From Pirellula staleyi DSM 6068 (GTDB taxonomy: Bacteria; Planctomycetota; Planctomycetia; Pirellulales; Pirellulaceae), in assembly GCA_000025185.1 (NCBI GenBank), contig CP001848.1:1890001-1922000 (forward strand): a DNA stretch of 32,000 nt, read 5' to 3'. Positions 15,791-32,000 of the stretch are shown piece after piece (positions within the stretch are counted from its first letter, which is position 1; each line of letters begins with the position of its first letter). The notes below the pieces were generated by a model. It worked only from the letters and a program-made list of their open reading frames with translations. It ran no database searches and was not told where the DNA came from. A program made the translations under genes and the position numbers.

Positions 15791-17155
15791 TTATTGAAGG
15801 TCCTGCGTCAAGCTGCTCGAAAGGAGGAGGCCATCGATTTCAGCAGCGGCTGTTTGCAGCTCCTGCAGCGACTCGAGATAGGCCAGGTTGGTTTGAACCA
15901 GCGTGCGCTGGGCTGTCAGGAGCGAAAGGAAACTGAACTCCCCTGCCCCGTACCCTGCGCGCGACAAATCGAGCGACTCCGCTGCAGCGGGGAGCAGATC
16001 TTTTTGATAGCGGTCGACCGATTCGCGGGCAGTGCTGTAACGCTCATAGACCCCCGCCAATTGTTGGCTCAATCGCACCTCGAGTTGTTCGAGGGCGTAG
16101 GTCGCGGCTGTGAGTTCGCGCTGCGCAGCGAGAATACCACCCTGATTGCGGTTGTAGATCGGAAGCGGCATCGTCACCTGCACAATGCCGTCGGTTTTGC
16201 CACCGATACCGTTGTCCTGCATCACGACCCCTTGCACATTGAGGTCGCCAATCGGCTCCGCCTCGGCCCGCGCCACGGCCCAGCGAGCACGCTCGATATT
16301 GGCCATCGCTTCCGCCACTTCGGGACTCGTCGATAGCAGGCGTGCTTTGGTTTCTTCGAACGATACAAGCGGAAGGACTTCGTCGGGGCGACCTACGATC
16401 GGACGAGATTCGTCGAGCGGAAGGTTGCAGACAGCGGTGAGCTCGCGCCAAGCAGCAGCGAGTCGATTACGCGCGGCGATCAGCGACAGTTCGGTTTGCT
16501 GCGCTTCGAGTTTGGCTTGCAGGATGTCGACCTTCGCCGCCTCTTTCGCTTCAAAGAGTTGATTGACGGTTTTCAGGGCATCACTCGCCAGTCGCGACAG
16601 ATCATTCGTGCGATTCAGACGCTGCTGAGCGATCAGCACCTCGTAGTACTTCACGCGCACATCGGTCATCACACGCTGCTGCTGTGCGGCGAGTCGCTGC
16701 TGAGCCATCACCCATTCTTGCTGCATCACCGACTGGCTGAGCCGAAGCTTGCCGCCACGAATGATGTCCTGCGTGACCATTAAGCCATGCTGTTCCGCTT
16801 GACCACCACTGCCGAGTTGCGAACCAAGGTAGCCCGCATGAGGATTCGGTTTTAGACCCGCTTGCAGCATCCGTCCACAAGCTGCTTGCACGAGCGCTTC
16901 AGCCCGTGCCACCGAGGGATTGCTGGTGATCGCTTGTTGCTGCAGCAATTCGAGCTCGAGAGGCTCGAGCATCGGCTGGGGGGGAGCGATCGACTCGGGC
17001 TCGATGAAGCGGACAGATGCCGTTCGCGCCCGGAGCTGCGAGGCATGCGGGGTGAACTCGCTCGGCGCTGGTCCCAGCGGTGTTTGTCCCAGCACATCGC
17101 CGCTGGCAATCGCCGCGACGAGCAGTGACCCCGCTATTGAAGTTCGCCAAAGCAT
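15791..17155 (-). CDS. TolC-family outer-membrane efflux/channel protein
   Basis: 454 aa with signal-like MLWRTSIAGSLLVAAIASGDVLGQ. It has two repeated helical halves with the typical OEP pattern (LTLQQAITSNP-like LELLQQQAITSNPSV; ...YLESLQELQTAAAEIDGLL at the C-terminus). Confidence 0.8.
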   Translation of the reverse strand: MLWRTSIAGSLLVAAIASGDVLGQTPLGPAPSEFTPHASQLRARTASVRFIEPESIAPPQPMLEPLELELLQQQAITSNPSVARAEALVQAACGRMLQAGLKPNPHAGYLGSQLGSGGQAEQHGLMVTQDIIRGGKLRLSQSVMQQEWVMAQQRLAAQQQRVMTDVRVKYYEVLIAQQRLNRTNDLSRLASDALKTVNQLFEAKEAAKVDILQAKLEAQQTELSLIAARNRLAAAWRELTAVCNLPLDESRPIVGRPDEVLPLVSFEETKARLLSTSPEVAEAMANIERARWAVARAEAEPIGDLNVQGVVMQDNGIGGKTDGIVQVTMPLPIYNRNQGGILAAQRELTAATYALEQLEVRLSQQLAGVYERYSTARESVDRYQKDLLPAAAESLDLSRAGYGAGEFSFLSLLTAQRTLVQTNLAYLESLQELQTAAAEIDGLLLSSSLTQDLQ

Positions 17156-20654: not shown

Positions 20655-22472
20655 TTAAACTTTGCCTGCCAGTTTCAGAGCGGCCATGACACCGATGAAC
20701 AGGAAGCAGCAGCCACCCAAAAAGAGTCCGATCCGAATGAAGATGTTCGGCCGAATTTCTTTGGGTAGCAGGATGGTGTTCACAAACATCGTGTGCCAGC
20801 AGCTGAACGCGAAGGCAAAGTTGTAGCCTGTCGACGACAGCTTAAAGACAAAGCCGGGCTTATCGATCAGCCACAGAATGGTGAACCCGAGCGTGCAGTA
20901 GCAGCAGAGGACCGTGAAGTAGACATAGCGGATGTAGCTCGTATCGAGCTCGCGCATCCGGGGACTTGCTGTCCAGATCACATCGACCCAGCGTCGAATG
21001 AAGCCGTCCATCGTCGTGGCGTTGCTGGTGATCATCACCAGGAATCCGCAGAAGAGGGTGAAGCCCCAGAAAGCGCGTCCCAGTTTGGGTCCTGACACCG
21101 TTTTCGAGAGCCCGCTTTCATACGCCAGCACACCAGGCGGAGGATTGGCTACCTGACGCTCCACGCCACCAGCAGTGGCTGCTGCGGTGGTCCAGTCGTC
21201 GCTTCCCGTTCCGCGCGGCAGGAACTCCACCGAGAGGATGCTCGGCAAAGCGACACCGACAAAGCAGGCGAGCATCCAGACGCAGGTTTGATCTCGAACG
21301 ATATGAAGATACCAGCGTCGCCACCGCGGCAGCGATTCCTCGTTCACAATGAACACACTTCCCACGTGCGAAAGGGTGATGCCGTGGCCACCGACGACAC
21401 TCGGAATCGCGCCGACGTGATGCCCCATTCCCCATCCCTGATCGCGCGTGAAGTTGCTGATCGGCGTATTGGTCAGGCCACCGTTGCCGGCAATCGCCGC
21501 CAGACCTGCGATGAACGCAATCAGCGAAAGATCGACCGCCGGGAAGGTTCCCTTCGTTGCGAGCGAGACAAACACATTCTCGACGTTCGACCCGTCTTGT
21601 TTGCCATCCCCATCGACATCTTCAAACTTAATCAGCTTGCCCGCCGCATCTTTCTCCCACGTGTCAGGCTTTCCATCCCCATCGGAGTCGATGGAAACTG
21701 CCAGCGAAGGCTCGACGATATCGAGCCGTCCATCGAGGTCGAAATCTTCGCCCGGATCAAGCACTCCATTGCCGTTGAGATCTTCTGCGCGAATGATCGG
21801 CACGTTACCGATTTTTGTAAACCCGCTGACAATCTCGACCCAGCTCGAGGGACGGGAGTAGAACAAGCTCAGGATCACTAAGAATCCAACGACCACCACG
21901 AGCTTAAAGCTCATGATGAACTTCAGGCTGTTGTAGACCTTGCCACCGAAGATCAGCGGAATCATCGTCCCGCCGTAGAGGCAGCTGCTCACGATTTTGT
22001 GAAACCACCAGTCCGATGCGCTCCCATCGGGGTCGGGTAGTCGGCCGAGCAAGATTGCTTCGAGAGGGACAGCCGCATTGACCGCGAGATAGGGAGCAAT
22101 CGATCCCCAGTCGAGCATCAGGTAGATGACGACCCAAAAATAGGGATGCGGAAAGAGACGGAATTTGCCCGTGAAAATCGGTTCGCCGGTGTAGAGCGTG
22201 TAGCGGCTGATTTCGATGTTATAAAGCACCTGGATCAGAATGCTGAGGGTTGCGACCCACAGTAGCGATCCACCATACTTGGCGGTGACAGCGGGGCCAG
22301 CCAGCCACTCGCCACCTCCGATCGCCGCGGCCCCCATGACGAGGCCCGGCCCGATCATGCTCAAGATGTTTCGCCAGTGAAACTTCGGAGCATCGATCAG
22401 TTCGTTCACGTCCCATTGGGGCATTGCGTGCGAACCGGGCCAAGGCGCACTGGTGGCGGGTTTGTCGCTCAT
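20655..22472 (-). CDS. Nramp-superfamily-like multi-pass membrane transporter (divergent) carrying an acidic DxDxDG-repeat loop insertion
   Basis: 605 aa. The N-terminal NILSMIGPGLVMGAAAIGGGEWLAGP aligns by eye with the Nramp TM1 region (GPG...DPGN), but GGGE replaces DPGN. There are about 11 or more hydrophobic segments. Residues about 229-297 are an acidic Asp/Gly repeat region. Confidence 0.6.
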   Translation of the reverse strand: MSDKPATSAPWPGSHAMPQWDVNELIDAPKFHWRNILSMIGPGLVMGAAAIGGGEWLAGPAVTAKYGGSLLWVATLSILIQVLYNIEISRYTLYTGEPIFTGKFRLFPHPYFWVVIYLMLDWGSIAPYLAVNAAVPLEAILLGRLPDPDGSASDWWFHKIVSSCLYGGTMIPLIFGGKVYNSLKFIMSFKLVVVVGFLVILSLFYSRPSSWVEIVSGFTKIGNVPIIRAEDLNGNGVLDPGEDFDLDGRLDIVEPSLAVSIDSDGDGKPDTWEKDAAGKLIKFEDVDGDGKQDGSNVENVFVSLATKGTFPAVDLSLIAFIAGLAAIAGNGGLTNTPISNFTRDQGWGMGHHVGAIPSVVGGHGITLSHVGSVFIVNEESLPRWRRWYLHIVRDQTCVWMLACFVGVALPSILSVEFLPRGTGSDDWTTAAATAGGVERQVANPPPGVLAYESGLSKTVSGPKLGRAFWGFTLFCGFLVMITSNATTMDGFIRRWVDVIWTASPRMRELDTSYIRYVYFTVLCCYCTLGFTILWLIDKPGFVFKLSSTGYNFAFAFSCWHTMFVNTILLPKEIRPNIFIRIGLFLGGCCFLFIGVMAALKLAGKV

Positions 22473-22601
22473 GCTTTGCTCAATCGGTCTCGTCGCAAAG
22501 TGGTGGGAGAGGAAGCAGACGTTGGGGTAGAGAGTATCGACTGCGATCGTGGGTGGGTCAACCTTCTTGGGGAAAAACTACGGGAAACTACAATACTCTC
22601 C

Positions 22602-23666
22602 ATGAACACACGTACCCATCGCGGACTCACGCGGCTCGAGATCATCACGCTCGTCTTCATCGCGGGCGCAGCGTTCTGCATCCTGATGCCCTACCTGGCC
22701 TCCTCGCGCAACAGTTCGCGCCAGGCGCAGTGCGACCGAAAACTGCAGGAGCTTGCGCGGACCACCACGTTCGTAGCTCAGCTGAAAGACGAATTCCCCG
22801 GCTACAGCAACTTGCGCGCGAAGCATGGCAAACTTGGACGTCTGCGCACCGGGTGGGTCTTTCCGCTGTTGCCTTTTATCAGCCGACCGATCGATCCGGT
22901 GACGCTCGAGCCCCCTGGACCCGATGTGCTGGGGCCTCGCGCCGATATCCACCTGAAGTATGGTCCCGCTGGGGAGGATGAAGTGCGCGGCCAAGAGCCC
23001 GATCGATACCTCCCGGAACTTGTCTGCCCGGCTGATCCTCGGCTGGCCAGTTCCAAGCGCCTGGCTCTTCTCACCTATGTCGCCAACTGCGGTCTTCCCG
23101 ACGCGCAAGGGGCTCGAGAAAGCGCTGGAGATCTGCTCCCCGATGGTCCGGAAAGCGGCGTGTTTCTCGACAAGTTTCCGGAGTGGAAAGAGCCGTATCA
23201 ATTGACGATTCCCGAGATCGAAGCAGCCGACGGAAGTGAGTTCACGCTGCTGTTTAGCGAGAATATCGACGCCAGCCTCTGGACCGATGCTACCGAACCG
23301 CAGGTGGGGTTTGTCTGGAGCGTCAACGATGGGCTCGCTGATCCGGTAGCAATGGCTGATGGAGCGCTCGCTGACGGAGCACAGCTGAGCGACGAGCAGA
23401 AAGGTTGGCTCCGAGAGATGCCCAGCGTGCTGCCGATGAATGCCGAGCGTGGTCAGGGAGATCGGAGCAGTTTGAAATATGCTCGTCCTTCGAGCATGCA
23501 TGGCGATGGGGTGATGGTGGTGTATGTCGATGGTCACACACGATGGACTAGCGACAAAATCGATCCACGGATTTTTCAGCACCAAATGACACCGATGGGA
23601 ACCAAAGTTCGCTTCCCCGGAACGGAGGTCCCTATGCCCGAGCCTTGGCGCGAAGTGCGTGAGTAG
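22602..23666 (+). CDS. Divergent DUF1559 / H-X9-DG family pseudopilin-like protein
   Basis: The ATG at 22602 gives MNTRTHRGLTRLEIITLVFIAGAAFCILMPYLASSRNSSRQAQCDRKLQEL. G|LTRLE keeps Glu at +5 of a prepilin-type motif. The C-terminal HGDGVMVVYVDGHTRW fits H-x9-DG. The 75 upstream codons of the track ORF overlap the divergent neighbour's start. Confidence 0.7.
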   Translation: MNTRTHRGLTRLEIITLVFIAGAAFCILMPYLASSRNSSRQAQCDRKLQELARTTTFVAQLKDEFPGYSNLRAKHGKLGRLRTGWVFPLLPFISRPIDPVTLEPPGPDVLGPRADIHLKYGPAGEDEVRGQEPDRYLPELVCPADPRLASSKRLALLTYVANCGLPDAQGARESAGDLLPDGPESGVFLDKFPEWKEPYQLTIPEIEAADGSEFTLLFSENIDASLWTDATEPQVGFVWSVNDGLADPVAMADGALADGAQLSDEQKGWLREMPSVLPMNAERGQGDRSSLKYARPSSMHGDGVMVVYVDGHTRWTSDKIDPRIFQHQMTPMGTKVRFPGTEVPMPEPWREVRE

Positions 23667-23672
23667 CGCTGC

Positions 23673-25205
23673 TTATTTGATGGTGCGGCGTAGCAGCACG
23701 AGGTTGCCAAACCAAGTCGCCTGATCGAAGCTCGCTATCACCGGCGCATAGGTGGGGTGCTGCTGCAGTTCGACGAACGATCGCTCGGAGCCGCGCAGAA
23801 CCAGGGCCTCACTTGCGCCGAGCGATCGAGGCTCGCGTGCGAGCGAGCGAATATCGAGCGGCACAATGCGCGGCGCAGGGTCGCCGCTGATCTGGTAGAT
23901 CGCCGTGAGAGGAAACACGAGAAAGGCATCCCCTTCCGAGGTGCGATGCTTGAGCAGCTCGGGGGCTTCGATCAATCCACTTCGGAGATGGATCGTGGCG
24001 GGGCGCTCGGTCTCGGCCAGCGCGCTGAGGTGCTCGACGAGGCCGCGCCAATCTTCGCGACGATCGGCGATCAGCACGCCGCGGGTCATCACGTTTTGTG
24101 CCAAACCGCTCTGATAAAGGGTGAAACCGACCAGCAGCGATCCGACGGCAATAGCTCGCAGAGTCGATTTTTCGCAGACGATCACAAGTAGCGATGCCAG
24201 CACGATGAGCGGCACGATAGAGCAGACGAGATAGCGGGCGGTGAGCAGCGGCGCAAAACCCGCAGCACTGGCGATGTAGGCTAGCACCAGTGGCAAGAGG
24301 GCTGTCGCTGCAACCAGCGCAATGCGGCTGAACTGCAGATCCTCGAGCTTGCTCGCTCGCTGGCGGAGCGCGATCGCCACCACAATCGCCAGCCCAGCGA
24401 GGGCCAGCACCGTCCCGGGTACGACGGTGAAGAGCTGCGGCAAATCGTGCCACGCTACTTGCTCGAACGAGAGACTCCAGTTTGCGCGGCGCGCGGTGGC
24501 CAGGCGGATCAGTTCGAGCTGAGGAAAGATCAACAGAGGGAGTAGCAGCGCGCACAAGCCGAACTGTCGATAGCCAAAGCGTTGGCTGGGGGGGCGAAAC
24601 TGCACGAGGATTGCAAGCGTGAAGAGTTCGGCACCGATCGGCAAGAGACCCGTGGGATGCAGATGGATCACGAGCGCCGCCGAAGCAGCCCACAGACATT
24701 GCATGCGAAGCGTCGGCTGCTCGATCATCGCTATGGCAATCAGCAGATGCACCACCATGACGAGCTGCAGTAGCGCATACGGACGAGCCTCACTTGCATA
24801 GAAGATTGGCAAGTGACTCACCCCCACCATCATCGCTGCGATGATCGCGGCTGTCGGCGCTGCAATGGTGCTTCTGGAGAATAGTCGCGCAGCGAGCAAA
24901 CTCGTTAGCGGCACCAAAGCGATGCCACTCAGAAGACTTACGAGCCGCAGTGCAATCTCGCTCTCACCCAGCACGAAAACAACGAGTTTCACCACGTAGA
25001 AATAGAGGGGCGATTGGTTGCCGATCAGCGCACGACGACTCACGTCGCTCCAGTCCCCATGCACGCACCAACTGGTGTGAAGTTCATCGAGCCACAGGCT
25101 CTCGCCGACGTGCCACGTGCGAAGGATCGCTGAAGCGATGGTGACGCCAGCGACGATCCCAAGGGTGGATGGAGCGAGCTTAGGCACAGAGGGGGCTGAT
25201 GTCAT
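23673..25205 (-). CDS. GT-C fold membrane glycosyltransferase (PMT_2 / ArnT / GT39-83-like)
   Basis: 510 aa with about 11-12 TM segments, then a C-terminal soluble domain of about 130 aa. The first-loop motif is RTWHVGESLWLDELHT (acidic DE pair). NQSPLYFYVVKL and YASEARPYALLQL are typical of the PMT_2-type family as I recall it. Confidence 0.7.
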   Translation of the reverse strand: MTSAPSVPKLAPSTLGIVAGVTIASAILRTWHVGESLWLDELHTSWCVHGDWSDVSRRALIGNQSPLYFYVVKLVVFVLGESEIALRLVSLLSGIALVPLTSLLAARLFSRSTIAAPTAAIIAAMMVGVSHLPIFYASEARPYALLQLVMVVHLLIAIAMIEQPTLRMQCLWAASAALVIHLHPTGLLPIGAELFTLAILVQFRPPSQRFGYRQFGLCALLLPLLIFPQLELIRLATARRANWSLSFEQVAWHDLPQLFTVVPGTVLALAGLAIVVAIALRQRASKLEDLQFSRIALVAATALLPLVLAYIASAAGFAPLLTARYLVCSIVPLIVLASLLVIVCEKSTLRAIAVGSLLVGFTLYQSGLAQNVMTRGVLIADRREDWRGLVEHLSALAETERPATIHLRSGLIEAPELLKHRTSEGDAFLVFPLTAIYQISGDPAPRIVPLDIRSLAREPRSLGASEALVLRGSERSFVELQQHPTYAPVIASFDQATWFGNLVLLRRTIK

Positions 25206-25258
25206 GATTCAGCCAGCATAATTCGCTCGAGCCGTTTGTCGCTATTGTGGGCGAGTGA

Positions 25259-26083
25259 TTACTCGGCAATCGCGCTTGCCAGTTCGGTAGAAACGCTTTC
25301 GATATGCTCGGCGCTAATGGCGGGAAGTTCTTCGGCAAAACCGACCAGTAAGGCGAGATCGCACAAGCGATTGATTCGCCGCGGAATTCCTTGGGTCAAG
25401 TGATGGACTGATTCGATCGCTTCGTCCTCGAAAATCGCCCGCTGACAGCCAGCCGCCGAGAGGCGATGCTGCACGTAGGCCATCGTTTCCGCGAGCGAGA
25501 ATCGGCGAACCAAACATTTCACTGCGAGTCGTTCTTCGAGATCGGGCATCTGCTCAATGGCGAGCAGTAGCGATGTTTGTCCTACCAGGATGAATGTCGC
25601 CAGCGGCTGTGAATGATATTCGAGGTTCATGAGCAGACGGATCGTTTCGAGCGCTGAGGTATCGCGTAGCAGATGCGCTTCGTCGACGACAATCACGGCA
25701 TGCTTTTGCGATTTCGCGTTTTCGATCAGCCTCGTTTCGATGCGCGACAAGGAGGCATCGAGCGCTGCGGGGCTGGTGGACGACAAGCGTGATCCAGTCA
25801 GTTGATCGGCCAGATAGGCGAGCAGTTCACCGGTGCTGAACTGCGGAAACACCAGTTGCACGCGTGGGGCAAAACTGTCGGAGAGTTGACGCAGAATGGC
25901 TTGCGCCAGCATCGTTTTCCCGAGGCCACAGCCACCAGCGAGCACAGCCCCTTGGCGCCGATTTTCGATCGCATAACGGAGCTTCAAAATCGCTCCTTGC
26001 TGCGAATCGCTCGGGTAATAGAACCGCGGATCGCCGAATGGTTCAAACGGCTTTGCGGCTAATTGCCAGTACGCCTGGTACAT
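25259..26083 (-). CDS. ExeA / MshM-like AAA+ ATPase (AAA_22 type)
   Basis: 274 aa. MYQAYWQLAAKPFEPFGDPRFYYPSDSQQGAILKLRYAIENRRQGAVLAGGCGLGKTML combines the typical ExeA N-terminus (y..yfgl...PF....d..f.y.s..h.eal..L) with Walker A GxGKT. Walker B is VIVVDEAHLL. GIPRRINRLCD lies near the C-terminus. Confidence 0.85.
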   Translation of the reverse strand: MYQAYWQLAAKPFEPFGDPRFYYPSDSQQGAILKLRYAIENRRQGAVLAGGCGLGKTMLAQAILRQLSDSFAPRVQLVFPQFSTGELLAYLADQLTGSRLSSTSPAALDASLSRIETRLIENAKSQKHAVIVVDEAHLLRDTSALETIRLLMNLEYHSQPLATFILVGQTSLLLAIEQMPDLEERLAVKCLVRRFSLAETMAYVQHRLSAAGCQRAIFEDEAIESVHHLTQGIPRRINRLCDLALLVGFAEELPAISAEHIESVSTELASAIAE

Positions 26084-26129
26084 GGGGAAGTTTCCGTCTC
26101 GCTACCAGCCAAGCAGCCATTGCCAGGCT

Positions 26130-27998
26130 TTAGAGGGTGGGTGTTTCGCTCGCAAAGTTCTCGGCAATGCCCACAGCTTCAGCGCCGCAGCCATACAAGC
26201 GATCGCCAATCGCGTGGCTTTCGCTGGTGGTGGCAAAGCGGGTGTCGCGAACCACAATCATGGCATCCATCGGGCACGCTTCACCGGCGGGAAAGAGCGA
26301 ACCTTCTCCCATGGCTGTGGGAGGCATGTCAACGATCACAAGCTCGAACGTTGCAGCCAGCGCGCGGAAGGTGGCGGTAACACGTGGGTCGTCGAGCGAC
26401 AGTGGATCGGCAGCGGACGAAACTTCGAGGGGAAGAATCGTGATTCGATCTTCTTTGCTTTTGATAGCGGCTTCGCTCAGCGGAATGGCTCCGGTGGCGG
26501 CATCTTGCCAGCCATAGGCCACTTCGAGACCGAGCATGCTCGCCAGCTGAGGTCGCGTGAAATCGGCATCGACAATGGCGACTTGAATGCCAGCGTCAGC
26601 AGCAGCGCGAGCCAAGCAAAGTGCCAAGGTCGAGCGACCTTCACCTCGCCGACTTCCGGTGATTCCAAGGGTCTTCAGGCCATCGCGAACCGCAATGCGG
26701 AGTTTCTCGCCAGCCTCGGAAAAGTAGCTGTTATCGCTGCGGAGCAGTTTCTCGCAAACGGCTGGCCAGTCGAAGCGATCGACGGCCCAGAGCGGCACGC
26801 AAGCGCGAGGAGCATGAACGACAGCTGGCTCCGCGAGAGGCTCGCTGGCGATCGTTTCCACTTCTTCGGCGAGTTGCAATTCTTCTTCCAGCTTGACTTC
26901 TTCGAGCTTCATATCGGCCGCTTCTTCGGCGGCAGTCGTCAGGTCGACGACTTCGGCCTGCGCGGGCAAATCGTCTGCCAGTTCGGCGGCCTCTGCGAGC
27001 AACTCCGGAGCTGGAGCGGCTGGTTTTTCCGAACGCTTTTTGTGAGGGGCAGGAACGGCGGTGTGAGCACCATCGACACGAAAATTTGGTTTCGCAGCTG
27101 GCTCTTCGGCAGCGGTTTTCGCGGCGATTTCAGTAGTTTCAGCGGTCGATGCTTGGTCGATCGAGCCTGCGAGTTGTTCGCTCAGGTCGAGCGAGGTAAG
27201 GTCGACCGTGACCATCATCGACGAGCGTGCCAGGGGCAACTCTTCCGAGGTCTCGAGCATCACGAGCGACGAGATCGAAGGATCATTCTCTTGCGAAAAC
27301 TCTTCCCAGTGCCCATGCACTTCGATGTGCATCGGATCGGCATCGATGGCGGCAGCGGCGATTGCTGCGGGCTTCAGTGGCTCGGCTTGAGGTGGCTCGA
27401 CTTTAGGTGATTCCGCAGCCACTGGTGCTGCCGCGATTGTCTCGGCAGGAGGTGCTGGAATCTTTGCGACCGAGACAACGGGCGATCGACTGGTGAGGGC
27501 GTCGGTTACTTCAGCTTCGGACTGGTCGTCGATGGCAATCACCACCGGGCCATACTGCGGCAGACGCGCGAGCTGTTCGCGCGTTTCTTCCAGTTGACGA
27601 ATGATCTCGAGCACACGGAGGGGACGCATGCGGCGAGGTGGTTCGTAGGCGGTTTGTGCAGGCTCGATGCGCTGTGGCGCTGGCTGCTCGACCGTGCTCG
27701 TCAGTTTGCGAAGGATTCGCCGTGGACGTGTTTTGGAACTACGCACCAGATGAGGTGGGGGAACAGCCGACTCGGCTGCATGCCGCTCGATCGACGCGCG
27801 ATAGAGCATGCCGCTATCGTACGACAGTTCAACCTGCGGTTGAGCTGGCTCGTAGGTCGGGCGTAGGGTGGTGGCCATCACATGGGGCTCCCGCGCTGCG
27901 GTAGTAACTGGTGGCGCGACCGAGGCTTTCGTCGAACGAGAATCGGCCGGCGCTTCTTTCGAAAATGCCTTAATAAAGGCCTGATCCAGAACGCTCAT
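26130..27998 (-). CDS. Protein with a roughly 440-aa low-complexity N-terminal region and a C-terminal BY-kinase/MinD-fold P-loop domain (CpsD/CapB/EpsG-like, atypical Walker A)
   Basis: 622 aa with AGGGAA 8 nt upstream of the ATG at 27998. The C-terminal domain carries Walker A ITGSRRGEGRSTLA, Walker A' VAIVDADFTRPQL and Walker B ELVIVDMPP. The N-terminal region is Pro/Ala/Glu-rich with no TM segment. Confidence 0.75.
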   Translation of the reverse strand: MSVLDQAFIKAFSKEAPADSRSTKASVAPPVTTAAREPHVMATTLRPTYEPAQPQVELSYDSGMLYRASIERHAAESAVPPPHLVRSSKTRPRRILRKLTSTVEQPAPQRIEPAQTAYEPPRRMRPLRVLEIIRQLEETREQLARLPQYGPVVIAIDDQSEAEVTDALTSRSPVVSVAKIPAPPAETIAAAPVAAESPKVEPPQAEPLKPAAIAAAAIDADPMHIEVHGHWEEFSQENDPSISSLVMLETSEELPLARSSMMVTVDLTSLDLSEQLAGSIDQASTAETTEIAAKTAAEEPAAKPNFRVDGAHTAVPAPHKKRSEKPAAPAPELLAEAAELADDLPAQAEVVDLTTAAEEAADMKLEEVKLEEELQLAEEVETIASEPLAEPAVVHAPRACVPLWAVDRFDWPAVCEKLLRSDNSYFSEAGEKLRIAVRDGLKTLGITGSRRGEGRSTLALCLARAAADAGIQVAIVDADFTRPQLASMLGLEVAYGWQDAATGAIPLSEAAIKSKEDRITILPLEVSSAADPLSLDDPRVTATFRALAATFELVIVDMPPTAMGEGSLFPAGEACPMDAMIVVRDTRFATTSESHAIGDRLYGCGAEAVGIAENFASETPTL

Positions 27999-29208
27999 AG
28001 CGATTCCCTAATCGTGGCTCGTAGTTGGGCGTAACAGTGCCGTAGGTCATTCCTGGAGCCACACCACCAGCAGCACCTGGTGCGGGTGCTACAGGAGCAT
28101 TGGCTGGTGGAGCCAAGGGTGGTGTGTAGTTGCCACCTCGACCTGTCGACGGATAGCTGATGGCCGGAGCTGCTGGTGCAGCAGCCGGTGGGGTGGATGT
28201 AGCAGTTTCGACTTGCGGACGCGATGCCATTTCGGCCGCCGGCTGTGATGGACTACCTGCTGGCGGAGCCGAATTTCCCTGAGCCGTTTGATTCCAAGGG
28301 AACAAGGCACGATCGTCGTTTGGAGCGGCTGGAGCAGCTTCGGGAGTCCCCAGTTCGATGCCACTGGCAGGCGAACTTCCTTGATCGCTATAGACGCTAG
28401 CAGTCGAAGGAGGTGCCGGGGGCTCGGAAACGAGTTCGGGTGCCGACGAGGTTTCCACTGGCGACTCGCTTGGCATTTCGATCGATGGGGGACCGATCGA
28501 GGCAGCATCGCCCGGATGAGCGGCTGGCCAATCGGCGTTAGGAGTCGGTTTTTTCGAATCGCCCGACCGAGCGAAGTAGATCGTGGCGGCCAATGCCACG
28601 ATGAAAACCAGGGCAATGTTGCGGCCGTGCGTGGTGAACCAGCTGTCGGCCGTCGGTTTCGCGGTCTCTTGTGGTTCGCGACTTTCGCCCCGTTTTCGGC
28701 GCGAACTGGCAGGCGTAACTGTAGCATCAGCAGCAGGTTGCGTCTCGGAGGTCGCTTTATCGACCATCGTCTCGACAGCCGATGCTGCAGGTTTCTCGGC
28801 CACTGATTCCTGGAGAACTGGCTCGCTCGGCAACGACTTGGGCTGCGGCTTCACGACTGACGCTGCAGCTACAGCGGGAGGAGGTACTTGCGTTTCCGCA
28901 GGAGGCGTAAACTCTGGCTTGGCTTCGACTTTCGGCGTTACATCGATCTTGGGAGCCTCGGCCACTGCGGGCTTGCTCACCGGCAGCTCGGCAGCCAACT
29001 CAGTGGCCGGTGGCGCTGCAATCAGAGACGCTGGAGGAGGTGTAACTGGTGTATTAGAAATAGTTTGCGTTGCTGGCTTGGATGTCGTCGCGCTCGACTT
29101 TTTGGAACCAGCCGATCGTGGGCGGACATCCATCAAGTGAAACAAGACCGGCATTTCCCGACGCGATGGAGCGTCTTTGGCGGGCTTGGCAGCTGTTTCG
29201 TGCGTCAT
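27970..29208 (-). CDS. Pro/Ala/Ser-rich single-pass membrane protein (hypothetical) with a Tyr-enriched C-terminal tail
   Basis: 412 aa from the ATG at 29208, with AAGGA about 8 nt upstream. The track start at 29232 is a TTG. It has one hydrophobic segment (NIALVFIVALAATIYF) flanked by RRKR...R and R..KK. The remainder is low complexity. Its 3' end overlaps the next gene by 29 nt. Confidence 0.6.
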   Translation of the reverse strand: MTHETAAKPAKDAPSRREMPVLFHLMDVRPRSAGSKKSSATTSKPATQTISNTPVTPPPASLIAAPPATELAAELPVSKPAVAEAPKIDVTPKVEAKPEFTPPAETQVPPPAVAAASVVKPQPKSLPSEPVLQESVAEKPAASAVETMVDKATSETQPAADATVTPASSRRKRGESREPQETAKPTADSWFTTHGRNIALVFIVALAATIYFARSGDSKKPTPNADWPAAHPGDAASIGPPSIEMPSESPVETSSAPELVSEPPAPPSTASVYSDQGSSPASGIELGTPEAAPAAPNDDRALFPWNQTAQGNSAPPAGSPSQPAAEMASRPQVETATSTPPAAAPAAPAISYPSTGRGGNYTPPLAPPANAPVAPAPGAAGGVAPGMTYGTVTPNYEPRLGNRYERSGSGLY

Positions 29209-29688
29209 CGGGGAGTCCTTTCCCAGGGGCAAATGGCCGGGCCAGCGCAGTGTTCTTAAGTGCGCGCGGCACCAACCGCTTAGCGCCAGTTATCGGTAGC
29301 AATCTTGCCGGTCTTTAGGATTAGGTAAACTTTGACGGCAAAATCCCCGGTTGGGGTGAATTTCACCAATCTTCCCCTTCACAGCTTTTGCAGGCTTCTC
29401 CAGTTTCACAGCGTGGCGAATTCACCTAGTCGCAAAGTGGTTGTTCAAGGGAACATCTCGACACCACTTCGCCCGGCATGAGCCCCTGGCAAGCCTTGCG
29501 ATAAATCGGGTGGGCTGGGATAATTGGAAGTTTGTTCGAACTTCGATCGCACTTGCGGGTCCCTATCCATCTGCTGATCGCACTCCCCAGCGACTTCCCG
29601 ACGTGAAGTTGCCCCACCCTTTTGCGGTTGGCAGTTGTTTGCCGCACCTCTCGTTTCTTTCAACCTTTCGCTCGCAACAGTTTCCACC

Positions 29689-32000
29689 ATGACCGATATC
29701 CGCAGGTCGAAGACCTATGACCTTCTCGAGTCGCTGCTAGAAGACCGTGTGCTGGTGCTCGACGGGGCCATGGGAACGATGATCCAGCGGCTGGACCTCG
29801 ACGAAGCCGCCGTGCGTGGCGATCGCTTCGCCGACCACACCAAGGACCTCGCTCGCTTCTCCGATATCCTCTGTCTGACCCGCGCGAATGACATCACCGA
29901 GATCCATCGGAAATATCTCGCTGCCGGTGCCGACATCATCGAGACGAATACGTTCGGCGCTAGCGTCATCGGCATGGAGGAGTTCGACCTCCCGAACGAA
30001 CTTGTTCGCGAAATTAACTTCGCCGCTGTCAAATGCGCGCGCATCGCTTGCGACGAGTTCACCAGCCGCGATCCTTCGCGCCCGCGCTTCGTCGCCGGTT
30101 CGATCGGACCGACGACCAAACAAACGGCCATCTCCACACGCGTGGAAGATCCCGCCTATCGCGCCGTCACGTTCGAGCAGATGGTCGAATCGTATAGCGG
30201 ACAGATCGAAGCACTCGTCGAAGCGGGTGTCGACATCATCCTGCCCGAAACGGTCATCGACACCCTCAACCTCAAAGCGTGCCTCTTCGCGCTTGAGCGA
30301 CACTTTAAGAAGGTCGGCGAGCGCACCGCGGTGATGGTCTCGGGCACCTTCAACGCTGCTGGTGTGACATTCGTCTCGAGCCAAAACGTCGAAGCATTTT
30401 GGAACTCCATCGCGCATGTGCCGCTGCTGTCGGTTGGCATGAACTGTGCCCTCGGTCCCGACGTGATGCGCCCGCATCTCGAGGAACTTCAGCGAGTCTC
30501 TGGCGCGAAAATCAGCTGCTATCCCAATGCCGGTTTGCCCAACGAAATGGGGCAGTACGATCTCGGCCCTGCAGGCATGGCCAACATCATTGGCGAATTT
30601 CTCGACGAGCGCTGGCTTAATATTGTCGGCGGCTGCTGCGGCACCACCCCCGATCACATCGCGGCCATTGCCGAGCGTACGCGCCGCGCCAAGCCGCACA
30701 AGATCGCTGAGAAGCCCGCTTGGCTTCGTTTGTCCGGAACCGAGGCCTTCACTCTACGTCCCGAAAGCAATTTCGTGATGGTGGGCGAGCGTACCAACGT
30801 CACCGGCAGTAAAGCTTTCGCACGTCTGATTCGGGACGAAAAATACGAAGAAGCTGTCGACGTTGCCCGTCAACAAGTGGCTGGTGGCGCCACGATCATC
30901 GACGTCAACATGGACGATGCGCTGCTCGACGGCGAAGCCGCCATGACCCGATTCCTGCGACTCATCGCCGGCGATGGCGAAGCGTCGAAAGTGCCGGTGA
31001 TGATCGATAGCTCGAAGTGGAGCGTGCTCGAGGCTGGTCTCCGCTGCGTGCAAGGCAAAGCGATTGTTAACAGCATCAGCCTCAAGGATGGCGAGGAAGA
31101 ATTCCTCCGCCGCGCCGAGCTTGTACGTCGCTACGGCGCGTCGGCTGTGGTGATGGCGTTCGACGAAGGTGGTCAAGCTGTCGAAATCGATCACAAGGTG
31201 AGCATCTGCAAACGAGCCTACGACCTGCTCACCCAGAAGATCGGCTTCCCGCCCGAAGATATCATCTTCGACCCCAACATCCTCACCGTTGCCACCGGCA
31301 TCGAGGAGCACAACAACTACGCCGTTAACTTCATCGAAGCGACCCGGATCATCAAGCAAGTTTGTCCTGGGGCAAAAGTCAGCGGCGGTGTGAGCAATAT
31401 TTCGTTCTCGTTCCGTGGCAACGATGTGGTGCGCGAGGCGATGCACTCCGCATTCCTCTATCACGCCATTCGTGCAGGGCTCGATATGGGAATCGTCAAC
31501 GCCGGCCAATTGGCGGTGTACGAAGAGATTCCTCCCGCGCTGCTCAAAGCGGTTGAAGATGTGCTGCTCAACCGCAGCGACGATGCCACCGAGAAACTCG
31601 TCGCACTGGCAGAAACTGTCAAAGGGAAAGGCAAAGTTGCCGCAGGTGAAGATCTCACCTGGCGTGAAGAAAACGTCGAAGGTCGCCTCCGACATGCGCT
31701 CGTCAAAGGGATCGATCGTTTCGTCGAGACCGATGTCGAGGAAGCTCGCCAAAAGTATCCGAAGTGCCTCTCGATCATCGAAGGCCCGCTGATGGACGGC
31801 ATGACCGTTGTCGGAGATCTCTTCGGCGAAGGAAAAATGTTCTTGCCGCAAGTGGTCAAAAGCGCTCGCGTCATGAAGAAGGCAGTCAACTATCTGCTTC
31901 CCTTCATGGAGCAAGAAAAGCTGCTCGCCGGTAACGAAAGCCAAGGGGCTCGTGCTCGCGTGCTGATGGCCACCGTCAAAGGGGACGTGCACGACATTGG
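29689..32000 (+). CDS. metH: Cobalamin-dependent methionine synthase, N-terminal about 770 aa. It continues beyond the window.
   Basis: My own translation from the ATG at 29689: [35 protein letters not shown]... (homocysteine-binding domain). The frame stays open to the window end, where it reads ...[16 protein letters not shown], the D-x-H-x-x-G cobalamin-binding motif. It is absent from the ORF track because there is no stop in the window. Confidence 0.95.

Follow-up and report, generated by a model that had tools for sequence, protein, structure and literature searches.

Within a 32,000-nucleotide stretch of the genome of the planctomycete Pirellula staleyi DSM 6068 (contig CP001848.1; hereafter the window), we analyzed a compact run of four minus-strand genes, which we label g1, g2, g3 and g4 in the order of their transcription (Table 1). 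An initial annotation, made by a model that read the window alone, had placed these four genes together with a 29-nt overlap between g1 and g2 and gaps of 46 bp (g2/g3) and 53 bp (g3/g4), and all of these values are exact in the list of open reading frames (ORFs). g1 encodes a protein with one transmembrane (TM) segment, g2 a protein with a bacterial tyrosine (BY) kinase-like domain behind a long acidic linker, g3 an ExeA-like AAA+ ATPase, and g4 a predicted GT-C membrane glycosyltransferase. Our survey of related loci points to g1-g2-g3 as the conserved unit, in an operon apparently restricted to Planctomycetes so far, and this module is best filed as a BY-kinase-derived scaffold system that is coupled to an ExeA-like AAA+ ATPase.

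Table 1. Coordinates of the module genes, their sequence features and the surrounding features (positions in the window; g1 to g4 as in the ORF list).
Feature	Position	Strand	Details
g1	29208..27970	-	412 aa from ATG
g1 alternative start	29232	-	TTG; gives 420 aa
g1 hydrophobic segment	28561-28617	-	aa 198-216
g1/g2 overlap	27970..27998	-	29 nt, dual-coding: g1 tail NRYERSGSGLY-stop and g2 start MSVLDQAFIK
g2	27998..26130	-	622 aa
g2 N-terminal helix motif	27957-27998	-	M-S-x-L-D-Q-A-F-I-K-A-F/Y
g2 C-terminal domain	26154-26792	-	aa 403-615; BY-kinase/MinD-like
g2 atypical P-loop	26628..26651	-	RRGEGRST; Arg455 in place of Walker-A Lys
g3	26083..25259	-	274 aa
g3 Walker A	25913-25927	-	GLGKT
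g3 Walker B	25673-25684	-	DEAH
g4	25205..23673	-	510 aa
g4 D40-E41	25083-25088	-	in motif W-x-D-E-L-H
Promoter/operator-like element	29290..29334	-	CAAAGTT 29328-29334; TAAAGA 29312-29317; CCGATAA 29290-29296
GC-rich hairpin	29265..29279	-	GCGGTTGGTGCCGCG; just downstream of the putative -10
DUF1559/HX9DG gene	22377-23666	+	flanking gene
metH	29689-32000	+	start at 29689; divergent from g1
Nramp-like gene	20655-22472	-	in flank
ORF of 863 aa	17396-19987	-	no Pfam match at 1e-5
TolC-like OEP gene	15791-17155	-	co-directional with the 863-aa ORF
ORF of 546 aa	5851-7491	+	no Pfam match at 1e-5

Our synteny sample comprised 11 loci from species genomes, 80 metagenome loci and several contigs that were looked up individually, with g3 used for the metagenome scan and with ORF calls that are our own. 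Among 65 loci that offered sufficient sequence, 63 have g2 immediately upstream of g3 and the remaining two are partial matches, and a single-TM, Pro/Ala-rich ORF is present in the g1 position before g2 in nearly all loci. The module is also found, with a shorter g1 and g2, in metagenome-assembled genomes (MAGs) labelled Planctomycetaceae and Thermoguttaceae. A g4 gene comes after g3 in 18 of 52 loci, for the most part those of close P. staleyi relatives, and relatives of g4 are located in unrelated contexts in two genomes, Anatilimnocola aggregata and a Planctomycetota MAG. Since the arrangement recurs in dozens of independent contigs, it is not a product of chance; what recurs in related genomes is g1-g2-g3, and not the full four-gene module that had been proposed. 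A Ser/Thr kinase gene was considered as a fourth partner and rejected, being present after g3 in only 2 of 47 loci (L012 and L099). One 37-kb metagenomic contig carries a natural in-frame fusion of g2 and g3 (P0404, 749 aa; L097, 6001-8250) with a g1-like ORF before it. The 16-aa joint looks as if the intergenic spacer had been read through, and the fusion supports a predicted physical coupling of the two proteins.

All-versus-all clustering of the flanking ORFs in the 43 loci with at least 6 kb of sequence returned g1, g2, g3, g4 and metH as the only recurrent families. None of Wza, Wzx/Wzy, Wzz, an exosortase, gsp or pil was recurrent within 6-10 kb in these loci, and neither exosortase XrtA nor PEP-CTERM proteins were found in the window or in the same flanks, which agrees with the earlier description of the locus as self-contained.

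The C-terminal domain of g2 was assigned using profile and structure searches. The g2 family profile matched VpsO best among PDB entries (2.3e-19), followed by BceF, CapB, Etk and Wzc, with MinD weaker, and the scores were 73 bits for BY-kinases versus 47 bits for MinD. An AlphaFold2 (AF2) model of the domain has a predicted local distance difference test score (pLDDT) of 91.4, and its top Foldseek matches are Wzc, CapAB and VpsO, with TM-scores of about 0.7, and BceF and Etk are also among the first. By sequence and by modelled fold, then, this is a BY-kinase domain. In the AF2 model of the full-length protein the domain scores >90, a helix at residues 3-13 scores 84, and residues 15-400 are mostly <50. 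The helix is amphipathic and carries a conserved motif. The linker of about 390 aa (aa 15-400; 17% Ala, 12% Glu, 11% Pro, net charge -28) is highly variable in length, with orthologues of about 300 to 800 aa. The g2 family is large: a search of a library clustered at 50% identity gave 1523 representatives at E<=1e-30.

The g2 P-loop is atypical, and this bears on the earlier claim that Walker A, A′ and B are all recognizable in g2 and that the module contains two ATPases. Walker A′ (VAIVDADFTRP) and Walker B (ELVIVDMPP) are recognizable, with D477, D479 and D557 invariant or nearly so, but Walker A is present only in outline, with the GEGKTT of VpsO aligning to GEGrTT in the g2 family. The Walker-A Lys is found in 0 of 27 g2 orthologues, and the Arg-Arg pair of the P-loop is nearly invariant. 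Among 139 representatives the Lys position holds Arg in 78, Cys in 23, Ala in 4, Ser in 3, Gly in 3 and Lys in 3, with 25 unresolved, i.e., Lys is kept in only 3 of 114 resolved representatives; Val is also seen as a replacement across relatives. Invariant or nearly so across the family are the P-loop Gly, the D-A-D of Walker A′, the Walker B Asp, the Asp of a VVRD motif and the Asn of an ENF motif, which corresponds to the Asn of LN in VpsO. A Tyr tail is likewise absent, with one Tyr in the last 30 aa of g2 and with none of the 139 representatives containing at least three Tyr within its final 25 aa. Because both the Walker-A Lys and the Tyr tail are absent, g2 should not be a tyrosine autokinase; we infer that it cannot autophosphorylate, and it probably still binds nucleotide. 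The count of two ATPases is therefore not upheld, and g3 is, judged by its motifs, the only canonical NTPase of the module.

That g3 is an ExeA-like AAA+ ATPase was borne out: it matches AAA_22 (ExeA/GspA-like) at 6.5e-16, contains the Walker A and DEAH motifs, and is 55-66% identical across Pirellulales, with G53, G55, K56, D134 and E135 invariant. The protein has a 100% match to a P. staleyi DSM 6068 entry annotated as an AAA ATPase. Its best curated model is TIGR03015, the XrtA/PEP-CTERM-associated ATPase, which it matches over residues 1-269 of 269, scoring 179 bits where the cut-off is 324.5; for orthologues the scores are 137.5 and 191.5 bits. The link to PEP-CTERM loci that the initial annotation had drawn is thus reflected in the identity of the best model, but at a score below its cut-off. 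We classify g3 from these matches as a sister of the XrtA-associated ATPase family in the ExeA/ORC/TnsC-like AAA+ clade. The nearest solved relatives are Cdc6/ORC and TnsC, which are assembly-switch AAA+ proteins and not unfoldases. A hydrophobicity scan and Pfam identified neither a TM segment nor a peptidoglycan-binding domain in g3, and its N-terminal motif MYxxYWQLxxxPF is one that we take to resemble GspA/ExeA and MshM.

A mobile-element reading of g3 was also considered and rejected. Outside the planctomycetes, a full-length g3 match was recovered in a single locus (L009, 8567-10684, in a Syntrophobacteraceae MAG), which contains an IS481-family transposase followed by an ExeA/TIGR03015-like AAA+ gene, i.e., a transposase and helper-ATPase pair; this match is 30% identical and is without g2, and it represents a different system.

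The annotation and scoring of g3 as ExeA/GspA-like raise the question of whether the module serves as a helper of the GspA/GspB (ExeA/ExeB) kind that assembles a secretin or other trans-envelope channel of type II secretion or a type IV pilus, with g3 as the ATPase, g1 as an ExeB-like bitopic partner and g2 as an adaptor. GspA/ExeA-GspB/ExeB and MshM of MSHA pili share with g3 an AAA_22 domain with Walker A and DEAH motifs, and they have a bitopic partner in the operon; g1 is bitopic with a Pro-rich, presumably periplasmic part, which we take to be ExeB-like, and planctomycetes contain many pseudopilin-like DUF1559/HX9DG genes, one of which adjoins the module here. However, g3 is the ATPase domain alone, g1 has no T2SSB match, no gsp, msh or pil gene recurs nearby, the DUF1559 neighbor is not conserved, and ExeAB systems contain no BY-kinase-like component. 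Taken together, we consider such a helper distinctly unlikely.

The description of g1 as a single-pass, Pro/Ala/Ser-rich protein is accurate. It contains exactly one hydrophobic segment, is 53% Pro, Ala, Ser and Thr, and is rich in these residues on both sides of the TM segment, with no Pfam or NCBIfam match and no Wzz domain. Counts of flanking Lys and Arg residues are 94 versus 70, with the N-terminal side Lys-rich, and weakly favor an N-in/C-out topology. An AAGGA that resembles a ribosome-binding site is located 9 nt upstream of the ATG.

The dual-coding overlap keeps its exact length in about 27 of 36 loci, including distant ones: in these, g1 ends exactly 28 nt beyond the ATG of g2. The overlap is lost in three loci (L012-L014), where the N-terminal motif of g2 is kept and the g1 tail is changed, and since the g2 motif survives there without the overlap, the g2 frame is the primary selected frame. 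The C-terminal GSGLY of g1 was considered as a functional signal, e.g., a Tyr substrate, and set aside, since dual coding with the N-terminus of g2 accounts for most of it; this apparent motif is mostly a shadow of the g2 motif. g1, g2 and g3 look co-transcribed, and the conserved overlap shows what reads as translational coupling.

Upstream of g1, about 80-130 nt before its ATG, we identified a promoter/operator-like element with the bipartite core TCAAG[AC]-N15-CCGATA. Scanning both strands of 846 kb gave 36 occurrences, one per locus and all of them on the strand of the module, and the element lies just upstream of g1 in every locus that was position-checked, including loci without metH. 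A CAAAGTT precedes the bipartite element, giving the wider form CAAAGTT...T[C/A]AAGA-N15-CCGATAA. The element resembles a -35/-10 pair whose halves are 17 nt apart, or else a dedicated binding site for a sigma factor or regulator, and the predicted GC-rich hairpin next to it is common to the closer Pirellulaceae-like loci. The dedicated, conserved upstream element argues that g1-g2-g3 form one regulated unit. A generic promoter and terminator scan gave an outcome at chance level, and a structured RNA or riboswitch in the interval from g1 to metH was considered and rejected, as no Rfam match at the gathering threshold was found between positions 23000 and 30000.

The position of g1 gains meaning from the most distant g2 relative that we found (27% identity; L098, 1805-5405), which is located in a canonical trio of a Wzz-type polysaccharide co-polymerase (PCP), a BYK-like protein and Wza (Poly_export). 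This trio shows the ancestral context of the g2 domain, and because the relative is located there, g1 occupies the slot that the Wzz-type co-polymerase has in the canonical locus. The trio also fits a rival reading, in which the module would be a piece split off from an ordinary polysaccharide pathway, whether Wzx/Wzy, an exosortase/PEP-CTERM exopolysaccharide (EPS) pathway or holdfast, with g2 as the BY pseudokinase of a co-polymerase encoded elsewhere, g3 as the ExeA-like ATPase of the pathway, and the other genes scattered, as is usual in planctomycetes. The BY-kinase fold of g2, the identity of the best family for g3, and a weak match of g2 to the XrtA-associated tyrosine autokinase (TIGR03018; 33 bits, cut-off 230.65) all fit with this, as does the occasional attachment of a lipid-linked-sugar transferase (g4), and BY pseudokinases are described that partner with separate PCPs (PMC12004946). 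Against it, no EPS gene is recurrent within 6-10 kb in the 43 loci, g3 falls below the TIGR03015 cut-off, the PCP slot is held by a protein without a Wzz domain, and the conservation of g3, together with a housekeeping neighbor, is unusual for strain-variable EPS loci. On balance, we regard a detached pathway fragment as unlikely.

Comparison with described systems places the module close to several of these without matching any. The EcpK-EpsV pair of Myxococcus xanthus and the HfsB-HfsA pair of the Caulobacter holdfast share with it a BY-kinase-fold cytoplasmic protein without the catalytic Lys or the Tyr-rich tail, encoded by a gene that adjoins a membrane-protein gene and with a proposed role as a scaffold rather than a kinase (PMC12004946). 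Unlike in these pairs, the membrane partner g1 has one TM segment and lacks a Wzz domain, the genes are not embedded in a Wzx/Wzy/Wza locus and have no PCP-2 or EPS gene within 6-10 kb, g2 adds a conserved N-terminal helix and a disordered linker, and an ExeA-like AAA+ gene adjoins g2 in nearly every locus examined. The CapA/CapB (PCP-2b) two-component BY-kinases have the same order of a membrane modulator followed by a P-loop protein, are translationally coupled, and contain a homologous P-loop domain, CapAB being among the top matches by sequence and by fold; however, g1 is not recognizable as CapA/Wzz, and without the Lys and the Tyr cluster g2 should have no autophosphorylation cycle available to it. 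In the XrtA/PEP-CTERM systems, TIGR03015 and TIGR03018 are both named as XrtA-associated, which echoes the way an ExeA-like ATPase and a BY-kinase-like protein are paired here, but g3 and g2 both score below the cut-offs and an exosortase or PEP-CTERM context was found in no locus. The module resembles PCP/BY-(pseudo)kinase pairs and ExeA-type helpers, yet lacks features that define each of them. The profile searches that the initial annotation suggested linked g3 to TIGR03015 and AAA_22 and g2 to BY-kinases, with weak matches for g4 and none for g1; no curated family covers g1, g2 or g4, and g3 is below the cut-off of its nearest family. We found no description of the module in the literature on ExeA in Planctomycetes, TIGR03015 and Plim_0448, and the 2006 PEP-CTERM paper mentions neither the ATPase nor the kinase, so that the earlier statement that the locus maps to no described system stands.

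g4 contains at least nine TM segments and a C-terminal soluble domain of ~150 aa, with the motif W-x-D-E-L-H after TM1, in the first periplasmic loop. In 23 sequences, W38, D40, E41, L42, H43 and W46 are invariant, and 18 of the 23 family members match Pfam PMT_2 (PF13231), the best at 1.5e-10, in line with the GT-C membrane glycosyltransferase proposed earlier. The P. staleyi g4 itself has no PMT_2 match at E<=0.001 and is below the Pfam thresholds; matches to curated models are weak (TMEM260-like and Agl23), and homologues are annotated as GT39 or mannosyltransferase (PF13231). g4 shares with PMT_2/GT39-like GT-C enzymes (ArnT-like and protein-O-mannosyltransferase-like) a multi-TM N-terminal part, a loop motif with DE and a C-terminal periplasmic domain; about a third of the modules carry it. 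We classify it as a putative PMT_2/GT39-like GT-C glycosyltransferase and a lineage-specific accessory of the operon.

Our preferred interpretation, which we hold tentatively and with somewhat less than even confidence, is that g1-g2-g3 encode a membrane-anchored, nucleotide-switched scaffold for envelope assembly. Compared with the systems above, this scaffold looks as if it was built from the co-polymerase/BY-kinase pair of polysaccharide export and a GspA/ExeA-type AAA+ ATPase. In such a scaffold, g1 would tether the complex in the inner membrane and extend its Pro/Ala-rich tail into the periplasm, while g2 would serve as a nucleotide-binding oligomerization scaffold, a role like the one proposed for EcpK and HfsB, which are BY pseudokinases (PMC12004946), and would be held to its partners by the conserved N-terminal helix and the long acidic linker. 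g3 would act directly on g2 and provide ATP-dependent assembly or disassembly. The output may be the building or positioning of an envelope-spanning structure, e.g., a channel or a site of glycan or holdfast export. In Pirellulaceae-like lineages, g4 could glycosylate a periplasmic acceptor from a lipid-linked sugar, the Pro/Ala/Ser/Thr-rich tail of g1 being the most economical candidate for this acceptor.

Several points weigh against this scaffold model. All four proteins are characterized here computationally, and the role in envelope assembly or modification that was suggested from the outset is a prediction. g1 has no Wzz domain and one TM segment and evolves very fast, its role as a tether is argued from gene position, and no glycan-export or secretin gene is linked in the 43 loci. 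g4 is absent in about two thirds of loci, and glycosylation therefore cannot be central. With all nucleotide-binding residues but the Lys retained, g2 could be an enzyme with an Arg-based P-loop and not a pseudoenzyme. In addition, the metagenome loci are not phylogenetically independent, and P0404 was seen in just one metagenomic contig, where it may have arisen through misassembly.

The envelope of planctomycetes is unusual, as are their holdfasts, crateriform structures and division without FtsZ, and they contain many conserved genes without an assigned function. We also weighed whether the module might act in positioning or the cell cycle in the sense of MinD/ParA, with g2 as a membrane-tethered SIMIBI-class switch, g1 as a polar or septal anchor and g3 as a regulator, which might tie it to FtsZ-less division or budding. 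g2 does match MinD, FlhG and CpaE-like models, its family is wide, and g3 is strongly conserved; a further lead comes from TraDIS, in which the sites of transposon insertions are sequenced, of Planctopirus limnophila (PMC10632474). In its supplements, the ExeA-like gene Plim_0447 has an insertion index of 0.025 and is listed as "unclear", while of the adjoining hypotheticals Plim_0448 is essential (0.009) and Plim_0449 non-essential, and an ExeA-like paralogue, Plim_0854, is essential (PMC10632474). The layout of Plim_0447, Plim_0448 and Plim_0449 matches that of g3, g2 and g1, and the three are candidate orthologues. Against this reading, all MinD/ParA models score far below their cut-offs, BY-kinases outscore MinD, the deviant Walker A signature KGGxGK[ST] is absent (the motif being RRGEGR[ST]T), and no division or segregation gene is linked. 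We therefore hold a positioning system to be improbable. Equally a long shot is a stronger proposal, namely that g1-g2-g3 form an essential or near-essential, Planctomycetes-specific machine for envelope growth, budding or FtsZ-independent division, rather than serving an accessory polysaccharide function, in which a lysine-less BY-kinase/MinD-class switch would work with an ExeA-type AAA+ ATPase; its lead is again the layout and insertion indices of the P. limnophila genes.

The operon is widespread and tightly organized, with its own conserved control element, and it presents a mix of a BY-kinase-fold protein, kinase-incapable by its sequence, with an ExeA-type ATPase and with no linked polysaccharide or secretion genes. 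Should the scaffold model be right, BY-kinase-like scaffolds that work independently of phosphorylation would reach beyond the classical polysaccharide co-polymerases, and stand-alone ExeA-like ATPases, including the uncharacterized XrtA-associated family, would gain a partner that can be tested. Provided that the P. limnophila genes are orthologous, the system would be directly testable in a genetically tractable planctomycete.

Both flanking genes named in the initial annotation, the DUF1559 gene and metH, are present in the window. The DUF1559 gene was rejected as a part of the module, since it is not a conserved neighbor across loci, whereas metH is the divergent upstream neighbor in 11 of 24 loci. 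The metH neighborhood (L002-L004, L013, L014, L030, L033, L056, L057, L062, L083 and L095) persists in lineages where g3 identity is down to about 53%, an unusual conservation for planctomycete gene order, with no evident functional link. The genes elsewhere in the window are unrelated, and encode a threonyl-tRNA synthetase (ThrRS), a solute-binding protein, a phosphate porin, an ankyrin protein, an esterase, a TolC-like protein and TspO; a PADLOC run for anti-phage defence returned nothing relevant.

The Nramp-family transporter encoded in the flank contains an Asp/Gly-rich insertion of ~70 aa (aa 229-299) with DxDxDG-type repeats, which has a weak match to a CglD-like calcium-binding repeat, and a copy of this transporter that is 61% identical is located downstream of g4 in one of the related loci (L002). 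Two further ORFs, of 863 and 546 aa, are without a Pfam match (Table 1), and the larger is located directly 5′ of the TolC-like OEP gene and in the same orientation.

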